The notes under the pieces were generated by a model. That model had not been told where the DNA came from. It saw only the letters and a program-made list of their open reading frames with translations, and searched no databases. The position numbers and the translations under genes are program-made. From Parcubacteria group bacterium Gr01-1014_38 (GTDB lineage Bacteria; Patescibacteriota; Andersenbacteria; UBA10190; CAIZMI01), in contig VMFP01000001.1 in NCBI GenBank assembly GCA_007376145.1, positions 122,835 through 186,834 of the forward strand: a stretch of DNA of 64,000 nucleotides, read 5' to 3'. Positions 3,191 through 13,027 of this stretch are shown in pieces; positions within the stretch are counted from its first letter, which is position 1; every line of letters starts with the position of its first letter.

Positions 3191-4575
3191 CGGGTCAGTT
3201 GCATATGGAGCTCCTGGAGCTGCTCCCGTTCTAGGGGGGATGGAGCGCCGAGGAGTACTTCTTCCCCGTTCTGGTTCTTCGGGAACGCAATCACTTCTCG
3301 AATGCTCGGCTCGCGGAGCATGACCATGAGCAGGCGATCCACCCCAGGGGCAATGCCGCCGTGTGGAGGAACACCGAATTCAAAGGCCTCTAAGAGGTGC
3401 CGGAATTGCTGCTTCGCCTTCTCCATATCAAGGCCGATAAGCCCAAAGATCTTCTCCTGGAGCGCGCGGTCGTGAATGCGGATGCTTCCGCCGCCCACCT
3501 CGACGCCGTTGCAGACGAGGTCGTACTGTGTGCTCCGCACGCGGTGCGGATCCTGGTCGAGCACGAGGATGTCCTCCGGGAGGGGAGACGTGAACATATG
3601 GTGGGAAGGAGCGTAGTGCCCCTCTTCGAGTTCCGACTCGAAGAGGGGGAAATCCATCACCCAGGCGAACGCGAGCGCTCCCGACGCTTTCTCGGTGTCG
3701 GTGCGAAGGTCCGGGCGATCCGTCCCGTACTTCTCCATCGCTTCCGTGTAGGAGAGCCGCGGAAAAGGCTGCCGCGCAATCGGCGCGCCGAGGCTGGCCA
3801 CGACCGTCGTGAAGAGGTGTTCAGTCAGGTTCAGGACATCCTCGCGGCCGACGAAACTCATCTCGAGGTCGAGTTGGGTGAACTCGGGTTGCCGGTCTCC
3901 TCGCTGATCTTCATCGCGGAAACACCGGGCGATTTGAAAATACCGGTCGAACCCGGCCACCATGAGAAGCTGCTTGTACTGCTGCGGTGACTGCGGGAGA
4001 GCGTAGAACATCCCGGGATAGAGGCGGGAGGGAACCACGTAATCACGAGCGCCTTCTGGCGTACTCTTCGTGAGGATCGGGGTCTCAATTTCCAGGAACC
4101 CCTCCGCGTGAAGAAAGGCGCGAATTTCCGTGATGAACCGATCGCGCAGCGCGAGATTCCGCTGGAGGCGAGTCCGCCGGAGATCCAGGAAGCGGTACCG
4201 GAGGCGCACGTCCTCGCCGACCGGTGTTTCCTGTGCAATCTCAAATGGCGGAGTCTTTGCGACCGCGAAGGTCTCCACGGTCGCGACGTGCACTTCAATA
4301 TCCCCCGTCGGGATTTTCGGGTTCTTGAGGCGCTCCGGACGTAGAGCGACGGTGCCACTGACGCGGATCACGTCTTCGTCGTGAAGTTCGACCGGTGGTG
4401 CTTCTGCTTTGAATACGAGTTGTGTCACGCCGTACCGGTCGCGGAGATCGACGAATCGTACGCCGCCGTGGTCACGGCGGGCATGGACCCATCCGCAGAG
4501 CGTCACCGTCTGGCCGGCGTGTTCAGCGCGGAGCGCTCCGCAGGTGTGCGTCCGGTAGGTTGTCGCGTCCGTCAT
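3187..4575 (-). CDS. aspS: aspartate--tRNA ligase, compact bacterial-type form lacking the GAD insertion domain (462 aa)
   Basis: Class II motifs [52 protein letters not shown] and GGSIRIH..; only ~25 residues separate DRPDLR from the FPLFE region where E. coli AspS has a ~100-aa GAD domain. Confidence 0.9.
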
Positions 4576-5323: not shown

Positions 5324-5674
5324 TACCGGCTCCTTTCAAAAAGAGAAACGAACTCGTTGACAACGAGCGAAAGCTTTGAAAGAACGAAGCTCCGTACTCT
5401 ACCAGCGTCCTACACGCGCGCACCTTCACTGCGTAGTCGCTGGCCGGAGTAATGCCCCTGGGACCAGGGAGTCGGGAACGCCCGCGTTGTTCCTTAGATC
5501 CCTCCAGGAGTGGCGGCGCTGTGGAGGGACAGCACCGCCGCTCCCGGAGACGTCTCTGTGGATACAAGCTTGTACCGGTGGGTATCGCTTGAAACCCCAG
5601 GGAGAACCCCCATGACGAACATCGCACTATACCGCGGGCTTGTCTGTCTGTCAAGAGGCCGCTAGACTGCGCCT

Positions 5675-5749
5675 GCCCCCGTGGCGTAATGGCAGCGCAC
5701 GCGCCTTTTAAGCGCTGAGGTCCCAGTTCGAATCTGGGCGGGGGCACCA
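5675..5749 (+). tRNA. tRNA-Lys (anticodon UUU) with encoded CCA
   Basis: Manual fold: acceptor GCCCCCG/CGGGGGC, D-stem GCGT/GCGC, anticodon loop CTTTTAA (anticodon TTT), variable GAGGT, T-arm CCCAG-TTCGAAT-CTGGG, discriminator A then CCA. Confidence 0.85.
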
Positions 5750-5961
5750 CACTTCGCCCTCGGCCCGGCTCGGGCTTCGCGTGTCAGGCCATGCCGCTTC
5801 ATCTCGGGGGCCTTCGAGTACTTCCCGCGAAGTGTGCCCCGCGAAGCGAAGTAGCGAAGTGGGGCACCCTATGCTATGCTTGTGGATAAGGGGATCTCAG
5901 CTTTCAGCAGGATTTTCCGGACGTCCTCCACTCGTACCAGCACAAAACACCACATCGTGAC

Positions 5962-6994: not shown

Positions 6995-7083
6995 TCGGAG
7001 CCTCTCAAACGCGGGCGCGCCAAACCGACCGGGCAATGCCCGGCGGGGCGTTGCGCCCGTCCGGCAGGTAGGCGAGACGCCTC

Positions 7084-8178
7084 TTATCTCCGCAGTGTTC
7101 CGGCTTCCACAAACCGGCGGAGAAGTTCTTCTTGTTCGCGATTCACTCGCTTGGGGACGTCAATCACGGTCGTGATGACGTGATCGCCTCGTTTCCCCGT
7201 CTCTCCGCGTCTCCCGATCACGATGCCGCGTCCACGCAAGCGGAATTCCGATCCCGACGGCGTGCCTCGAGGGATCTCCAGGGTCGTTTTCCCATCGAGC
7301 GTCTCTACTTCGACGGTTCCTCCTAAGACTGCGGTGGTGAACGGCACGGCAATGGTTGAGCGGACGTCCTGTTCGTCTCGGGAGAAGGCGGGATGCCGCT
7401 TCACGCGCACGGTCACATACAAGTCTCCCGCTGGTCCCCTGCGCGGCCCGACTTCTCCCTCACCGGTGATGCGGATGCGTGTGCCGTCATCGAGCCCCGC
7501 CGGAATTTTCACGCGCAGCGTCTCGCGCTGATGGGCACGGCCGGTCCCACTGCACGCCGAGCAAAGCGTCTGCGGTCGCTTCCCTTCCCCACCGCAGTCG
7601 GGACACACCGACCGGTGCAGCATGGCGCCGAAGAACGTTCGGACCTGGCGCTCGACAACACCGGAGCCGGCACAGGTTGCGCAGGTGGCAATGGGCGTGC
7701 CGGGTTTCGCTCCGCTCCCCCCGCAGGTGGGGCACGTGCGGAGACGCTCAAGGATCAGGTCGCGCGTCGTCCCGCGTGCCATCTCTTCGAACGAGATTGT
7801 CACGTCGGTTGCACGGTCATCGCCACGCTCCGCCACGCGCGTTCGGCGACGCCCAAAGGCGCCGCCGAAGAGATCTCCGAAGAGGTCCTCGAACCCCGTA
7901 AATTCCCGCTGGAACACCTCGAACGGGTCGAAGCCGAAGCCCTGTGCGCCGCCGGGAGACCCGCCACTCTCGAACGTAGCCCCAAACCGGTCGTACTGCG
8001 CGCGTTTCTCCGAGTCGCCGAGAACCTGGTACGCCTCGTTGATTTCCTTGAATTTCTCTTCGTTCCCCGTCGGCTTGTCGGGGTGATACTGAAGTGCGAG
8101 TTTCCGGTAGGCACGCTTCACCTCGTCCGCGGAAGCGGAGCGTTCAACGCCGAGGGTGTGGTAGTAGTCTTTGGGCAT
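7084..8178 (-). CDS. dnaJ: chaperone DnaJ
   Basis: J-domain YYHTLGV...[15 protein letters not shown] region, four CxxCxGxG zinc-finger repeats ([32 protein letters not shown]). Confidence 0.9.
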
Positions 8179-8195
8179 CGGGCTTTTGAGTTCTG

Positions 8196-8456
8196 TTACC
8201 GCTCGTACACGTCTTTGCGGTGCCCAATCGTGGCGAATAACGCGGTATCGGTTTCCGTGAAGAGGAAGAGCACGCGATAGACCTGCGTCACCCGGAAGGA
8301 GAACGTCAACGACTCCCCGTGGAGTTTCTTGACGTGGAGTCGTGGGTCACGCCAGTTCTTCCGAAAGATCCCTTCCTGCCTGCGGTACAGGACCTGAATG
8401 TCTCGTGGGAGTTTCCGGAACTGTTTAGAAAATTCGTCAGTGTAGAGAATCTTCAT
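8196..8456 (-). CDS. RelE/ParE-family type II toxin (86 aa)
   Basis: [21 protein letters not shown]...[12 protein letters not shown] resembles RelE/ParE/YoeB toxins including C-terminal HRKDVY; 4-nt overlap with upstream antitoxin-like ORF. Confidence 0.7.
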
Positions 8457-8686
8457 ACGCGCCGGCGGACACGCCCTGCACGCCAGTCACGGACTGCACG
8501 ACGCAGGGAGGCGCGGAGCCGCGCGGCATCTTTGTAGTCATTGAACGATTCCTCTGGGATCTCCGAGCTTAGCTCCTCGAAGACTCGCCGGGAGAGCTCC
8601 GAGAGGGAAAATCCATAGCGAAGCGCCAAGCGAGCGAGACGATCTTTCGTCTGCTTCGGGAGGTCAATCGTGAGTCTAGTGCTCAT
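8453..8686 (-). CDS. ribbon-helix-helix (CopG-like) antitoxin candidate (77 aa)
   Basis: Internal ATG at 8686: MSTRLTIDLPKQTKDRLARLALRYGFSLSELSRRV...; RHH-like beta strand plus two helices. Stop overlaps toxin start (ATGA arrangement). Confidence 0.6.
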   Translation of the reverse strand: MSTRLTIDLPKQTKDRLARLALRYGFSLSELSRRVFEELSSEIPEESFNDYKDAARLRASLRRAVRDWRAGRVRRRV

Positions 8687-8909
8687 TGGAGAGGAGTGTA
8701 CCTTGGCTAAACATTCGGAGTCAAAGAGCGCGAGCTTCCGGAGCCGGAAGGCGAAGTGGGGCCTGCACCGCGAAGTCCCGCCGCAGGCGGGACGAAGTGG
8801 GGTACGCGCGCTTGATATCGTCGGAAGGGGCACCTCTTGACACCCCAAGGACAGAATAGTAATCTTGAGATGGCATTGGTTCCTTCTTTTAAAGAGGTGA
8901 GGTGCGCTG

Positions 8910-9200
8910 ATGTTGAATCAGGAGGGTATGTCGGAGGTTGGCTCACACATCCAGAAGGCTGTTGGTCTACGGCTCCGCATTAGGCAGCTTTCCTCTCAAG
9001 AATTTGCGGAGTTCCATGATTTGATTCGGCGCATGAGCGTTGATGACCTCTGGCAATTCGTACTTCTTGTGGAGAAGTACTCAGGTGGGCCGCCTCCCGA
9101 GAGCGAGCTCGAAGCAATGAGGACCAGGGTGTGGGAAAAGCTTCGGCAACACCTAATCCAGAGTCGGCTCGAGCGCAGCGAAGAATCAGAGACTTTGTAG
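8910..9200 (+). CDS. small hypothetical protein (96 aa), lower GC than surroundings
   Basis: ORF MLNQEGMSEVGSHIQKAVGLRLRIRQLSSQEFAEFHDLIRRMS...; local GC ~52% versus ~63% flanks; opposite strand to the chaperone operon. Confidence 0.35.
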   Translation: MLNQEGMSEVGSHIQKAVGLRLRIRQLSSQEFAEFHDLIRRMSVDDLWQFVLLVEKYSGGPPPESELEAMRTRVWEKLRQHLIQSRLERSEESETL

Positions 9201-9236
9201 TTCCTGCTATTCGTGACCCAGAAGGGATCATCTGGG

Positions 9237-11108
9237 TCACTTTTTCTCTGCCTCTCCCTCGACGGTCTTTCCGCCAGCGGGTTCTTGAACTGGCTGTTGC
9301 GCAGCCTGCTGCTGATACATCGCAGCTCCGATCTTCATGACCGTCTGGTTTAGGTCTTCGATGGCTTTCTTGAGCGCGGGGGTGTCTTCGCCTTTCTGCG
9401 AGGACTGCACAGCCTCGAGCTTTCCTTCAATCTCCTTCTTCACGTCGGCCGGCACTTTGTCGCCCATTTCCCGGAGAGTCTTTTCCGTCTGGTACACCAT
9501 CGCTTCCGCTTGATTACGGGTTTCGATCGCTTCCTTCTTCTTCTGGTCTTCCTCCGCATGCGCGGCCGCATCCCGCGTCAGACGCTCGACTTCGTCCTTC
9601 GAAAGGCCGGAAGACCCTTGGACGGTAATTTTCTGCTCCCGGCTCGTGGCCTTGTCCTTTGCGGAGACGGTCAGGATCCCGTTCGCGTCAATGTCAAAGG
9701 AGACCTCGATCTGGGGGACGCCGCGCGGCGCGGGCGGAATGCCGTCGAGGATGAATCGCCCCAGACTCTTGTTATCGGCAGCCATCTCGCGCTCTCCCTG
9801 GAGGACGTTGATTTCCACCTGCGGCTGGCTGTCGGACGCCGTCGAGAAGACTTGTGACTTCCGCGTCGGCACCGTCGTGTTCTTCGCAATGAGCGGGGTG
9901 CGAACGCTCCCGAGCGTTTCGAGGCCCAGCGTGAGTGGTGTCACGTCGAGGAGGAGGACGTCCTTCACGTCGCCCTGGAGAATCCCGCCCTGGATCGCGG
10001 CGCCGACCGCGACGACTTCATCCGGGTTTACGTCCTTATGCGCCTTTTTTCCAAACAAGCCTTCGACGGCCTCGATCACCTTCGGCATGCGGATTTGGCC
10101 GCCGACGAGGACCACTTCGTCGATATCCTTCGGCTCCAGTTTGGCTTCCGCCAGTGCTTCTTTCGTGAGCGCGATGGTGCGGTCCACGTATTCGCCGACG
10201 AGCTCTTCGAGCTTCGCGCGGGTGAGCTTTAGGAGGAGGTGCTTCGGGCCGGAGGCATCGGTGGTGATGAATGGCTGGTTGATCTCCGTTTCCGACACTG
10301 TGGAGAGCTCGATCTTCGCCTTCTCCGCGGCTTCCTTGAGGCGCTGGAGCGCGATGGGATCCTTGCTCAAGTCGATGCCGTACTGCTTCAGGAACTCACC
10401 TGTCATCCAGTCAATAATCTTCTGGTCAAAGTCGTCTCCGCCGAGGTGCGTATCCCCGTGCGTGGCTTTCACTTCGATGGTTTCCGGAGCGACCTCCAGG
10501 ATGGAGAGGTCGAACGTTCCGCCGCCCAGGTCGTATACGACGATCCGTTCTTCTTTCTTCTTCTCGAGCCCATAGGCCAAGGCAGCCGCCGTCGGTTCGT
10601 TCAGGATGCGGCGGACGTTGAACCCGGCAATCGTGCCGGCATCTTTCGTCGCCTTACGCTGGGAGTCGTCGAAGTACGCGGGGACGGTGATGACGGCATC
10701 GGTGATGTTCTCGCCAAGTTTCTCCTCTGCATCGGCCTTGAGCTTCTGCAAGACCATGGCGGAGATTTCCGCCGGCTTATACCACTGGTCCCCCATATTC
10801 ACCTCGACGCCGCCCTCCGCACTCTCGCGGATATCAAACGGCAGGAGGTCTTGGTCGCGCTGGATTTCGGGGTCGGAGAACCGCCGGCCGATGAGTCGCT
10901 TAATGGAGTAAAGTGTGTGTTCGGGGTTCGTCACCGCTTGGCGTTTCGCCGTAATGCCGACGTGACGATCGCCGGTCTTCGCGATTGCAACGACGGACGG
11001 AGTTGTCCGCGCTCCCTCGCGATTTTCGAGAACGCGCGGCTTGCCACCTTCGATGATGGCCATACAGGAGTTCGTCGTTCCGAGGTCGATTCCAAGAATC
11101 TTGGGCAT
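9237..11108 (-). CDS. dnaK: chaperone DnaK (Hsp70)
   Basis: [37 protein letters not shown] and C-terminal substrate-binding/lid regions; 623 aa. Confidence 0.95.
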
Positions 11109-11158
11109 GAGTGTGAAGCGTAGGAGTGAGAGGATGAGTGCTCAGACGCGAGCTGGTC

Positions 11159-11671
11159 TCACGTCTCAGAACTCTTTGAAACCTTTACGCGCGCTGCCCG
11201 CAAGACCTGACCATTCCGCAGATACCCGGCCGCAAGCACTTCCGTAATCGTGCCAGCGGAAAGATGGGATGGCTCTTCCGCGACTGCCTCGTGAAGCTTC
11301 GGATCGAACGGCGACCCGACCTCACCAGTGGCAGTCACTCCGGCCTCTTGGAGGAACGAACGAAAGGCTTGGTAGATCTGGACGATACCCGTGGTCCACG
11401 GATGGGATTTGAGTTCCTCCGGGGTGTGGCGCATTGCTGCCTCAAAGTAGTCCAGAAGAGAAATCAAGTCCTTGAGGACGCTATCTTGCGCTGCATCGGA
11501 GGCATGTGCAAGACGGTCTTCCAGATCCTTCCGCAGGTTCTCGTAGTCCGCGAGTGCCCGCTGCCAGCCGGCAAGATGCTCGGAGGCGGCAGCTTCTGCC
11601 GCTGCCAGTCGGGGATCCGTGTTCGTTCGGTGGACGGTTCCCGCTGGGAGACCGCGGAGCGGAGCCGGCAT
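11159..11671 (-). CDS. grpE: nucleotide exchange factor GrpE
   Basis: RALADYENLRKD coiled-coil and C-terminal beta domain typical of GrpE; its start shares one nucleotide with the hrcA stop (TGATG). Confidence 0.85.
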   Translation of the reverse strand: MPAPLRGLPAGTVHRTNTDPRLAAAEAAASEHLAGWQRALADYENLRKDLEDRLAHASDAAQDSVLKDLISLLDYFEAAMRHTPEELKSHPWTTGIVQIYQAFRSFLQEAGVTATGEVGSPFDPKLHEAVAEEPSHLSAGTITEVLAAGYLRNGQVLRAARVKVSKSSET

Positions 11672-12387
11672 CAGAGAGACCGGAGGGTATGGACTGCGCG
11701 GAGAATCCGCATGTTTCTCGTGTACGGCATGCGGAGGGGCCCGATGAGTGCCGCAAGCAGCTGGAGTCCGGTGGGCAGCATCGGCGCTGTCACGAGCATG
11801 CTGACATGCTCCGCCCGTGCGACTGGATTCTCTCCATCGATAAAGACGGTCGGTTGCCCATCGGCCACGTGGGCCATCAATGTCTCACTGTGTTCCTCGA
11901 ATGCCTGGAGGACACGCTCCAGATCGTGGGCCGTCTCCCCGTCGGTGAGTTCACGCATGCGGAAGAGATTGGCCAACCCGGCTGGCTCCCGGACCACTGC
12001 CTCCGGAAGTATCGCCACCACCGCCAACGTCCCCGAGAGACGCGCGAGCAGCTGCGCCAGTTCGCGGGCGAGTGCGGCTTCCTGACTCGGATCAACGGCC
12101 GGTGCGAACCGGCGAAGCGCGGCAACGGCGGCTGGCGACGGAGCGCGGGCTCCCGCGTGATCCACGTAGTAGCGATACCCCAAGCGCGTTGGGACGCGTC
12201 CAGAAGACCGATGCGGATGTTCCAGAAACCCTTCGTCTTCGAGTTGAGCAAATTCGGCGCGGACGGTCGCGGAACTCCAGGGAAGGCGTACCCGTTCCAG
12301 CAGAGCTTCTGACCCAACCGGAATCCCCGTCCGGATGTACTCCCGAACGGCGGTGCAGAGAAGCGTGGATTGTCGGTCCGTGAGCAT
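11671..12387 (-). CDS. hrcA: heat-inducible transcription repressor HrcA
   Basis: MLTDRQSTLLCTAVREYIRTGIPVGSEALL...SSGRVPTRLGYRYYVDH matches the HrcA N-terminal wHTH and conserved region. Start set to ATG at 12387; the longer ORF-track N-terminus would translate the CIRCE element. Confidence 0.85.
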   Translation of the reverse strand: MLTDRQSTLLCTAVREYIRTGIPVGSEALLERVRLPWSSATVRAEFAQLEDEGFLEHPHRSSGRVPTRLGYRYYVDHAGARAPSPAAVAALRRFAPAVDPSQEAALARELAQLLARLSGTLAVVAILPEAVVREPAGLANLFRMRELTDGETAHDLERVLQAFEEHSETLMAHVADGQPTVFIDGENPVARAEHVSMLVTAPMLPTGLQLLAALIGPLRMPYTRNMRILRAVHTLRSL

Positions 12388-12388
12388 G

Positions 12389-12415
12389 TTTAGCACTCTC
12401 GCGCTTTGAGTGCTA
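12389..12415. promoter_or_regulatory. CIRCE operator (HrcA binding site) TTAGCACTC-N9-GAGTGCTAA
   Basis: Perfect consensus inverted repeat ttagcactc tcgcgcttt gagtgctaa immediately upstream of hrcA. Confidence 0.9.
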
Positions 12416-12417
12416 AA

Positions 12418-12447
12418 AGTATGCGCCCCCGCTCTTGCCGTTGTCAA
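12418..12447 (-). promoter_or_regulatory. sigma-A type promoter candidate for hrcA operon (TTGACA -N18- CATACT) preceding CIRCE
   Basis: Minus-strand reading: TTGACA acggcaagagcgggggcg CATACT tttagcactc; the classic promoter-then-CIRCE layout. Confidence 0.45.
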
Positions 12448-12475
12448 GGGTTGTTTGCTACGGTGAAGGGCTTCC

Positions 12476-13027
12476 ATGAATCAAACACGTCTCACAATCA
12501 TCCTCTCCGGCCTTGCGATCGTCGTGGTCGCAGCCGCTGCCGGGTACGGACTCGGAATGCTGGCGGAAAAGCGGGTCGCTCCAGAAGCGCCGCGCACCCC
12601 GGAAGCTACCGCATTGCCGTCTCCCAGTCCTTCCCTTCCCTTACCCAGTCTGACTCCGACCGCGTCGCCCCTCCCCGCTTCTCCGCGGGTTCCCGCCGCC
12701 GCCCCCACCGGGCCGGACCAAGGACCCCCAGAGCCGGTATTCCGCGTGGTGATCGAACCCTTCCCCACGGTCGTGCGGGCCGGAACCCCGCTGCGTGTCC
12801 GCTGGCAGATTCACGGACCCGCCGGGCTCCAAGGCGCCGCCACGAGACTCGTCGTGGTTCCGGAACAAGGGTCACCGGTGGTCAGTGCAGTCGCGCCCTC
12901 CGCTCTCTTCCCCGCGCGCTTCGAGGCGACGGTGACGGCCCCGGATCGCGGTCGCATGCTGCTCGTCGCCGAAGCCACGGCAAATGGTCAAACGGTGCAC
13001 GCCAAGCAGCGCGTCGTGGTTGAATAA
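12476..13027 (+). CDS. hypothetical membrane-anchored Pro-rich protein (183 aa)
   Basis: N-terminal TM LTIILSGLAIVVVAAAAGYGLGML, Pro/Ser-rich linker, beta-rich C-terminal domain; divergent from hrcA. Confidence 0.5.
   Translation: MNQTRLTIILSGLAIVVVAAAAGYGLGMLAEKRVAPEAPRTPEATALPSPSPSLPLPSLTPTASPLPASPRVPAAAPTGPDQGPPEPVFRVVIEPFPTVVRAGTPLRVRWQIHGPAGLQGAATRLVVVPEQGSPVVSAVAPSALFPARFEATVTAPDRGRMLLVAEATANGQTVHAKQRVVVE

Follow-up and report, generated by a model that had tools for sequence, protein, structure and literature searches.

A RelE-type toxin–antitoxin pair between dnaK and dnaJ of a Parcubacteria genome, and a putative record of its insertion into dnaJ

The closest described relatives of the gene pair analyzed here are the type II toxin–antitoxin (TA) systems of the RelBE kind. 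The nearest solved system is RelB-RelE3 of Methanocaldococcus jannaschii (PDB 3bpq), and further relatives are M. tuberculosis RelBE2 (3g5o), T. thermophilus RelE (2khe), and E. coli RelBE (4fxe). Passages in the literature already mention TA systems and RelE homologs in genomes of Patescibacteria, also called the candidate phyla radiation (CPR). We analyzed a stretch of 64,000 nucleotides (hereafter the window) of Parcubacteria group bacterium Gr01-1014_38 (contig VMFP01000001.1, positions 122,835 to 186,834), in which two small genes lie between dnaK and dnaJ. They form a TA pair of RelE type from a CPR subfamily that is poorly annotated; the kind of system is common, but its location is unusual. 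Taking the account as a whole, we consider it rather probable that the pair is a functional RelE/ribbon-helix-helix (RHH) module that entered dnaJ long ago and is transcribed with dnaJ from a promoter of its own.

The pair resembles RelBE in its layout, with a small antitoxin gene followed by a gene for a toxin of ~85 aa and an overlap of stop and start codons; in the RelE fold and an HRK..Y motif as in RelE3; in the retention of the K54, R61, R81, and Y87 equivalents of E. coli RelE; and in an antitoxin with an RHH-like N-terminus and a C-terminal helix. It differs from RelBE in its low identity to any solved RelE (23–28%), in the replacement of K52 by an invariant serine, and in its sub-threshold standing in Pfam and NCBIfam. 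YafQ-DinJ and YoeB-YefM are close in toxin fold (template modeling (TM) scores 0.77–0.80), and DinJ, which is an RHH antitoxin, is among the fold matches of the antitoxin; however, the identity to YafQ and YoeB is 12–19%, the catalytic sets of these two toxins (Glu/His) are not evident in the toxin here, and YefM is not an RHH protein. The toxin–antitoxin–chaperone (TAC) systems, in which HigBA is joined by a SecB-like chaperone, share with this locus a TA pair followed on the same strand, and probably in one transcript, by a gene of a chaperone system. Unlike TAC, the locus encodes an ordinary DnaJ instead of a dedicated SecB paralog, the antitoxin carries no extension, and the cassette has no chaperone neighbor in three of its four other contexts.

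The gene pair and its spread

According to the original prediction, the hrcA-grpE-dnaK-dnaJ series is broken between dnaK and dnaJ by an RHH-like/RelE-like pair on the operon strand with an ATGA overlap. Both statements were borne out: the four genes were confirmed with Pfam on the minus strand, the spacer between the dnaK stop (9237) and the dnaJ start (8178) spans 8179–9236 (1,058 bp), and open reading frames (ORFs) of 77 and 86 aa with the overlap are present in it. The features of the locus are as follows, in positions of the window; some coordinates of the original prediction were off by 1–4 bases.

12390..12416, no strand: operator of the CIRCE type (controlling inverted repeat of chaperone expression), 0 mismatches
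11671..12387, minus (12387..11671): hrcA, identified by Pfam; the public gene call is 238 aa
11159..11671, minus: grpE (PF01025, E = 9e-34)
9237..11108, minus: dnaK (PF00012, E = 1e-249)
9213..9240, no strand: 10-bp GC-rich hairpin over the dnaK stop codon, from a terminator scan and fold energy
8910..9200, plus: orphan ORF of 96 aa, convergent with dnaK
8802..8876, minus: dnaJ 5' stub, matching PF00226
8741..8801, minus: 61-nt insertion within the stub, two tandem repeat units
8726..8740, minus: RKLAL remnant CGGAAGCTCGCGCTC, putative J-domain helix II
8695..8724, minus: promoter-like site of the TA pair, a consensus match
8453..8686, minus: antitoxin gene, 77 aa, upstream of the toxin gene
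8196..8456, minus: toxin gene, 86 aa, RelE family, ATGA overlap with the antitoxin gene
7084..8178, minus: dnaJ, intact, 364 aa, identified by Pfam

The toxin is identical to the hypothetical protein G01um101438_153 and belongs to a family with 92 homologs of 85–86 aa each. A profile of 41 family members matched RelE3 of M. jannaschii in the PDB from end to end (E = 4e-7) and gave weaker matches to M. tuberculosis RelE2 (Rv2866), T. thermophilus RelE, and E. coli RelE. The AlphaFold2 model (predicted local distance difference test (pLDDT) score 92.3) has a β-α-α-β-β-β order (E2–5, H7–15, H18–33, E51–55, E60–68, and E71–79), and the top Foldseek matches were RelE3, YafQ, YoeB, and RelE, with TM scores of 0.68–0.80. 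The active site of E. coli RelE, as seen in RelE-ribosome structures, comprises K52, K54, R61, R81, and Y87. The last four align with R55, R61, R80, and Y84 of the toxin, which vary little or not at all in the family, and RelE3 has the identical HRK..Y motif at its C-terminus; the RelE catalytic residues, on whose retention the original prediction had made its toxin assignment depend, are thus kept at four of the five positions. Profile, predicted fold, and active-site positions together indicate a RelE-family mRNA interferase, presumably a ribosome-dependent mRNA endonuclease.

The antitoxin gene was assigned to ATG 8686, with its end at 8453, and not to TTG 8848, which the ORF program had listed. 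Its 17 homologs (76–78 aa) lie directly upstream of a toxin gene at every locus inspected. RHH_1 of Pfam was matched by 6 of the 18 members (best E = 6e-4, below the cut-off), and DUF6290, NikA-like, and FitA-like matches, all sub-threshold, recur among them. The AlphaFold2 model of the monomer (pLDDT 72) has an extended segment at residues 1–10 and helices at 11–23, 28–42, and 54–69. From these weak but consistent signals, the N-terminal domain is probably a ribbon-helix-helix, and the C-terminal helix is presumed to bind the toxin.

Several results weigh against these assignments. The position of RelE K52 is occupied by a serine (S53) that is invariant in the toxin family. The toxin scored 17.4 bits against PF05016 (ParE_toxin), below the gathering threshold of 23 bits, followed by PF24732 (ParE_like); the antitoxin scored 16.6 bits in Pfam, with a gathering threshold of 20.5; and NCBIfam and PADLOC gave neither protein a match. 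The Foldseek neighbors of the antitoxin are nearly all RHH proteins (ParD, Arc, DinJ, VapB, FitA, and CdbA), with every E above 0.2. The Pfam ranking, in which PF05016 and PF24732 come first, together with the fold common to ParE and RelE, would suit a ParE-type poison of gyrase. However, PF05016 spans both RelE and ParE and the match is below threshold; RelE, YafQ, and YoeB head the profile and fold searches, whereas ParE2 appears in the Foldseek list of the toxin only at rank 34 or lower, with E above 2e-3; and the three arginines of RelE type and the C-terminal HRK..Y are invariant or nearly so. A gyrase poison is therefore very improbable, and the assignment as a RelE-family interferase is preferred.

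Comparisons with two other loci that hold the pair between dnaK and dnaJ (L003 and L178) gave ratios of nonsynonymous to synonymous substitution (dN/dS) of 0.06–0.12 for the toxin and 0.10–0.13 for the antitoxin. The ratio for dnaJ was 0.10, equal to that of the TA genes, with synonymous sites saturated (dS 0.8–2.1). These results indicate that toxin and antitoxin are under strong purifying selection, and because their dN/dS values are ~0.1, as in dnaJ, we regard both as working genes. The missing curated family assignment and the loss of the pair in some relatives might suggest a decaying, non-functional relic, but both frames are intact, all family-invariant residues are present, and dN/dS is about 0.1 as for dnaJ, so that the chance of a relic is negligible.

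The antitoxin–toxin pairing was seen in the window and in L003, L007, L009, L177, L178, L179, and L180. The contexts outside the dnaK–dnaJ gap are as follows.

L007: mreB, TA pair, dus
L009: fpg, TA pair, inositol monophosphatase gene (suhB)
L179: Mur ligase gene, TA pair, FAD oxidoreductase gene
L180: uvrA, TA pair, two small genes, groES-groEL

The pair is co-oriented with its housekeeping neighbors in all four, and the pairs of L007 and L009 are each preceded by a short upstream region of their own, which shows no sequence relationship to the upstream region in the window. The two genes make up a compact, mobile cassette found widely among Patescibacteria. The subfamily is common in CPR and poorly annotated: Pfam, NCBIfam, and PADLOC make no call for it, and the majority of public copies are unnamed. 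PADLOC defense models had zero matches at the locus. The general understanding of TA systems is unchanged by these results; the pair is a well-documented example and offers no new principle.

The dnaJ stub and the age of the insertion

Between the orphan ORF and the antitoxin gene lies a fragment that the original prediction had not mentioned. It begins with MPSQDYYSVLGVSRGAPSDDIKRAY and matches positions 1–23 of PF00226 (E = 5.5e-5), as well as several DnaJ equivalog models. This stub comprises 25 codons from its ATG and forms the start of a 51-codon ORF (8876..8721). The 61-nt insertion (8801..8741) follows stub codon 25, and its removal would restore the frame to CGGAAGCTCGCGCTC (RKLAL), the counterpart of which in the real dnaJ is CGGAAACTCGCACTT; the J-domain reading stops there, before the HPD codons. 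The CGGAAGCTCGCGCTC region is conserved at 14 of 14 nt in L003, and RKLAL is probably all that is left of J-domain helix II.

In the outgroup L174, which has no TA pair and whose DnaJ is 54% identical, dnaJ starts 31 nt from a divergent small ORF; the corresponding distance of the window stub is 33 nt. The start regions of the window stub and of the L174 dnaJ also align (TTAAA..AGGAAC..ATGCCA......GATTACTAT). Because both the distance to the ORF and the start region match those of the L174 dnaJ, the stub is the original dnaJ start in place, with its ribosome-binding site still present. All DNA between ~codon 30 and the ATG of the present dnaJ has been added, and a second dnaJ 5' end is part of it. 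A J-domain stub in this position shows that the insertion went into dnaJ itself, an event made tolerable by the replacement 5' end farther downstream. The stub is in this respect an unusually clear record of a tolerated TA insertion in an essential gene.

A phmmer search of 82 CPR dnaK-dnaJ loci found a second J-domain fragment in the window, L003, and L011 only. The layout of L003 is that of the window (stub, repeat, hairpin, TA pair, and dnaJ); in L011, the stub immediately precedes dnaJ and the TA pair is absent. Decayed stubs were recognized by eye in L172 (MTKNYCQTF...), L173 (MTKDYYRTPG...), and L178 (KKNYASESVDRTAS). Whether or not a genome has the TA pair, a stub is seen at the ancestral start site of dnaJ throughout this clade. 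The positions in each locus are listed below.

Window: 8802-8876, minus strand
L003: 4529-4600
L011: 3895-4002
L172: 1500-1640, approximate
L173: 490-630, approximate
L178: 1085-1160, approximate

We compared the dnaK–dnaJ spacing and the DnaJ sequences of related genomes to date the insertion. A DnaJ search delimited a discrete clade of ~25 sequences with 66–79% identity to that of the window; the next sequence had 56%. The window, L003, L177, and L178 carry the TA pair, with P0104 and P0111 also counted, whereas the clade members L011, L171, L172, and L173 do not. In a neighbor-joining tree of DnaJ, the lineages with the pair span the clade from its base, and those without it form two nested pairs (L011 with L171, and L172 with L173), with stubs in L011, L172, and L173. 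The TA pair was found neither in the outgroup L174 nor between dnaK and dnaJ in any of ~78 other CPR loci, the spacers of which measure between about 100 bp and 3 kb. The tblastn searches (E up to 1e-3) of the spacers without the pair detected no TA remnants. Likenesses to 'ALFAT/GH' noticed by eye in L172 and L173 were considered as remnants and rejected, being within noise.

The pair is thus an insertion relative to the wider lineage, as the original prediction had it. Its ancestry is less favorable to that prediction, which had allowed that a pair ancestral across the whole lineage would speak against it: between dnaK and dnaJ, the pair was not found beyond the clade but appears to be ancestral to the whole of it, which comes near to that objection. 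The TA insertion appears to be ancient, dating back to the ancestor of this Parcubacteria clade, and the pair seems to have been lost at least twice since. As the simplest history, we infer that the pair was inserted once, in that ancestor, and was later deleted on two or more occasions, the stub remaining each time. In that ancestor, a cassette with its own promoter would have landed in the 5' end of dnaJ at ~codon 30, before the HPD motif, with a complete new dnaJ 5' end downstream of it. The old start codon, the ribosome-binding site, and 25–30 J-domain codons would have been left as a dead stub beside a pre-existing convergent gene, and a short palindromic repeat would later have been inserted twice into the stub. 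The pair has stayed next to an essential chaperone gene across a very deep divergence, despite the small, streamlined genomes of CPR.

Some observations count against this history. The DnaJ tree is a quick one with no bootstrap, and TA status is available for ~10 of its 21 tips (~10 of the ~25 clade members). The history also requires a source for the second dnaJ 5' end, which could be a tandem duplication that preceded the insertion or recombination with a donor already carrying TA-dnaJ. The stubs are also better kept than expected of neutral DNA: those of the window and L003 share 60% nucleotide identity although dS exceeds 1, and across the window, L003, and L011 the stubs have a nucleotide identity of about 54–62% and are still open and J-like. 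This conservation hints at some residual constraint. The constraint may come from promoter-like hexamers for the divergent small ORF on the antisense strand of the stub (TTGACA at 8838–8843 and TAATCT 17 nt on), which were read by eye and are below the threshold of the scanner.

Three other explanations of the stub sequence were rejected. Gene conversion with the resident dnaJ would make the window stub resemble its own dnaJ, but the identity is 54% to its own and 67% to that of L174, and in general a stub resembles its own dnaJ no more than it resembles the dnaJ of other genomes. Recoding or translational bypass between the repeats fails, since a hop of 41 nt lands out of frame and no J-domain follows RKLAL. 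An apparent 'YHPD' remnant after RKLAL contains TTGAC, which is better assigned to the conserved TA promoter, as its -35 box. The stub of L011, which is without the TA pair, contains in frame a perfect hairpin with a 14-bp stem at 3951–3984 (ACCCCGTTAGAGGC-GTTGCC-GCCTCTAACGGGGT, -31.6 kcal/mol), located at another codon than the insert of the window.

Transcription of the cassette and dnaJ

The CIRCE element (TTAGCACTC-N9-GAGTGCTAA) is perfect and lies just upstream of the hrcA start, with 0.02 chance matches expected. It is located between a promoter-like sequence (TTGACA-18-CATACT, 12447..12418) and the hrcA ATG. A search of the 64 kb with ≤3 mismatches gave no second CIRCE, and thus none near the TA pair or dnaJ. 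An hrcA ORF of 268 aa from 12477 would contain both the CIRCE element and the promoter; this is probably not the real start.

The hairpin at 9213–9240 has 10 bp and a fold energy of -19.2 kcal/mol, and a T-run follows it on the plus strand. We read it as the predicted terminator of the 96-aa ORF on that strand. The TA pair has a promoter-like sequence (TTGACT-18-TACACT) that ends 9 nt before the antitoxin ATG, and TTGACG-17-TA...T occurs at the same distance in L003, L177, and L178, so that such a site is present in all four TA-positive loci examined. The distance from the toxin stop to the dnaJ start is 17, 17, 5, and 19 nt in the window, L003, L177, and L178, respectively. The gap of the window contains neither a Shine-Dalgarno sequence nor a promoter-like site.

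These features suggest two transcription units. The genes hrcA, grpE, and dnaK would be transcribed from the CIRCE-controlled promoter, with transcription ending at the strong hairpin that faces the convergent gene, and the antitoxin gene, the toxin gene, and dnaJ would form a second unit starting from the TA promoter. The antitoxin–toxin complex probably auto-represses this promoter, and depletion of the labile antitoxin would leave free toxin to cleave mRNA on the ribosome. The short gap of 17 nt after the toxin stop implies that dnaJ would depend at least partly on the TA transcript, and dnaJ probably rides on it. If the TA promoter does drive dnaJ, deletion of the cassette may have become difficult. 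Two points speak against a clean separation of the units. The promoter calls are consensus matches, in a group whose promoters are poorly known, and the hairpin has no U-run on the dnaK strand, so that read-through from the HrcA promoter may occur.

Read-through would agree with the claim of the original prediction that the toxin is placed under HrcA/CIRCE control or polar effects, as in one heat-shock operon of hrcA-grpE-dnaK-TA-dnaJ. All genes are on one strand, a perfect CIRCE and a promoter precede hrcA, and the dnaK hairpin lacks a U-run in that direction. Passages of PMC4554461 link YoeB, a RelE-family toxin, to heat stress in other bacteria, and passages of PMC7918210 link GraT, another RelE-family toxin, to DnaK. 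The convergent gene, with its Shine-Dalgarno sequence and terminator, and the 10-bp hairpin nevertheless intervene. This split between dnaK and dnaJ pre-dates the TA pair, as it is present in the outgroup. In addition, there is no second CIRCE in the window, the promoter-like site is found in 4/4 TA-positive loci, and the cassette is counted as running from its own promoter in unrelated neighborhoods. HrcA control of the toxin is unlikely because the sole CIRCE is at hrcA, the convergent gene and the hairpin lie between, and the pair has a conserved promoter-like site of its own. The claim was not upheld, and a single operon is judged improbable next to the two-unit arrangement.

The constant order of antitoxin, toxin, and dnaJ also invites a second view, in which the pair is coupled to chaperones in the manner of TAC: DnaJ/DnaK (Hsp40/Hsp70) would control antitoxin stability or toxin release, and the TA promoter and conditional auto-repression would set dnaJ expression. 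Such coupling would explain the long linkage. The order and a spacing of 5–19 nt are kept through saturating divergence, the cassette of L180 lies 1.2 kb upstream of groES-groEL, and chaperone-dependent TA systems are described in passages of PMC5105189 and PMC6377645, beside the link between DnaK and GraT in PMC7918210. However, the antitoxin has 76–78 aa and the same C-terminus in contexts without chaperone genes, with no chaperone-addiction extension. The DnaJ is an ordinary housekeeping copy that is present with or without the TA pair, and on at least two occasions the pair disappeared while dnaJ was retained. One of the four other contexts is near a chaperone gene, which is compatible with chance. 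Control of the pair by Hsp40/Hsp70 is accordingly rated as quite improbable, more so than the single operon, and a functional link of any kind to the chaperone system as possible, with little in its support. If the coupling were true, growth arrest would be tied directly to proteostasis in an ultra-small symbiont, and the cassette copy linked to groES-groEL would fit the same theme.

In L180 (2774–6261), the copy lies ~1.2 kb upstream of groES-groEL, a position that may be fortuitous or may point to a tie with chaperone genes; no CIRCE was found near it. Read by eye, the TA promoter of L003 has CGTTGAC-N11-GTCAACG, a candidate operator palindrome that is not in the window. In L172 (about 1590–1612) and L173 (about 578–600), a conserved palindrome, TATCATGGATGATA, is located ~50 nt upstream of dnaJ and could be an operator or promoter element of dnaJ in these two TA-less sister genomes. 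The starts of dnaK (11108), grpE (11671), dnaJ (8178), and the antitoxin gene (8686) have no recognizable Shine-Dalgarno sequence; strong ones are found at the stub (8876, AAGGA) and at the 96-aa ORF (8910). A search for known RNA families in 7000–13000 gave nothing real in Rfam (only RsmY, E = 0.73).

Orphan genes and short repeats around the cassette

The original prediction had included the opposite-strand ORF of 96 aa in the insert and had described its GC content as clearly lower. The ORF is present at 8910–9200 with a strong Shine-Dalgarno sequence (GAGGTGAGG). Its GC content is 0.533, compared with a mean of 0.612 for the window (standard deviation 0.044 in segments of 291 nt), which is the 6.8th percentile, and the toxin gene is equally low (0.536). 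The description is overstated, because the ORF is only at the 6.8th percentile and the toxin gene is as low, so that the feature is not specific to the ORF. Pfam, NCBIfam, and PADLOC gave no match. Among 1.8 billion representative proteins, its sole homolog is a protein of 107 aa (38% identity, E = 4e-7) encoded between dnaK and dnaJ, in the same slot and orientation, in L174, which lacks the TA pair. The 96-aa ORF is a positional ortholog of the L174 gene, and since it has such an ortholog in a TA-less genome, it is an old resident of the slot and not cargo of the TA pair, contrary to the original prediction.

We compared the slot ORFs in the spacers of the window, L003, L011, L171, L172, L173, L174, and L178, and they fall into the following families.

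Family A: window and L174
Family B: L011 and L171
Family C: L172 and L173
Family D: L003
Family E: L178, on the same strand

Only the pairs window/L174, L011/L171, and L172/L173 are related. A single fast-evolving family of opposite-strand ORFs was rejected, as the hhalign probabilities among families A–D were all below 1%. The gap between dnaK and dnaJ is a small hotspot of gene turnover in the clade. It has housed at least five mutually unrelated orphan ORFs of 80–135 aa, mostly on the opposite strand and several of them with promoter-like sites.

A hairpin flanked by CGAAGTGGGG direct repeats, also noted in the original prediction, is present; the coordinates of the repeats were corrected to 8752–8761 and 8793–8802, with a spacing of 41 nt. 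The hairpin (GTCCCGCC-GCA-GGCGGGAC, 8 bp, 8775–8793) is enclosed by the first repeat unit. On the coding strand, the 61-nt insert reads CCCCACTTCG, hairpin, CTTCGCGGTGCAGG, CCCCACTTCGCCTTCCGGCTCCG, and is made up of two tandem units with the pattern CCCCACTTCG ... CGCGG(G/T)GCA. The repeat 10-mer itself is not rare in the window (8 hits with ≤1 mismatch vs 6.7 expected). L003 has the same insert architecture at the same site with another inner hairpin. The second unit (8761..8739) is identical at 23/23 nt to an in-frame segment of the C-terminal dnaK tail of L173, and near-identical units in the dnaK tails of L172 and L174 encode GNPT(S/P)P..S.GQ. An identity of 23 nt at a non-homologous site in another genome cannot be chance. 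The related copies are listed below.

Unit in the dnaK 3' end: L173 84-116, L172 1102-1134, and L174 about 2295-2325; encodes NPTSPSGSAGQ in the disordered tail
Related copies: window 5826-5865, non-coding, by tRNA-Lys; GCACCCCACTYCGC...CTTCGCGGGGCA
Similar copies: L003 7466-7510 and L171 7274, by sequence likeness

The dispersed unit (CCCCACTYCG...CGCGGGGCA) is GC-rich and palindromic, and it recurs at non-homologous sites. The direct repeats are best explained by a short palindromic repeat, dispersed in the clade, of which two units were inserted here in tandem into putatively dead DNA. A target-site duplication of the TA cassette was rejected; L177 and L178 carry the TA pair without the repeats. 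Short interspersed palindromic repeats whose in-frame insertion into genes is tolerated include the Rickettsia palindromic elements and elements like the repetitive extragenic palindromes (REP) and miniature inverted-repeat transposable elements (MITE). The unit here looks like a tiny REP/MITE-like element. It is likewise short and GC-rich, with complementary CCCC/GGGG ends at several unrelated sites, and like the repeats tolerated in frame it is found within the disordered DnaK tail of three relatives. Unlike the Rickettsia palindromic and REP/MITE-like elements, it is much shorter (about 23–50 nt) and was seen in a handful of copies. We know of no transposase linked to it.

Rfam identified tRNA-Lys alone in the whole window and no further family in the region 5324–5961, which holds one of the related copies. 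This region consists of ~640 bp of non-coding DNA with tRNA-Lys(UUU) at 5675–5749 on the plus strand and several palindromes rich in CGAAG/CTTCG.

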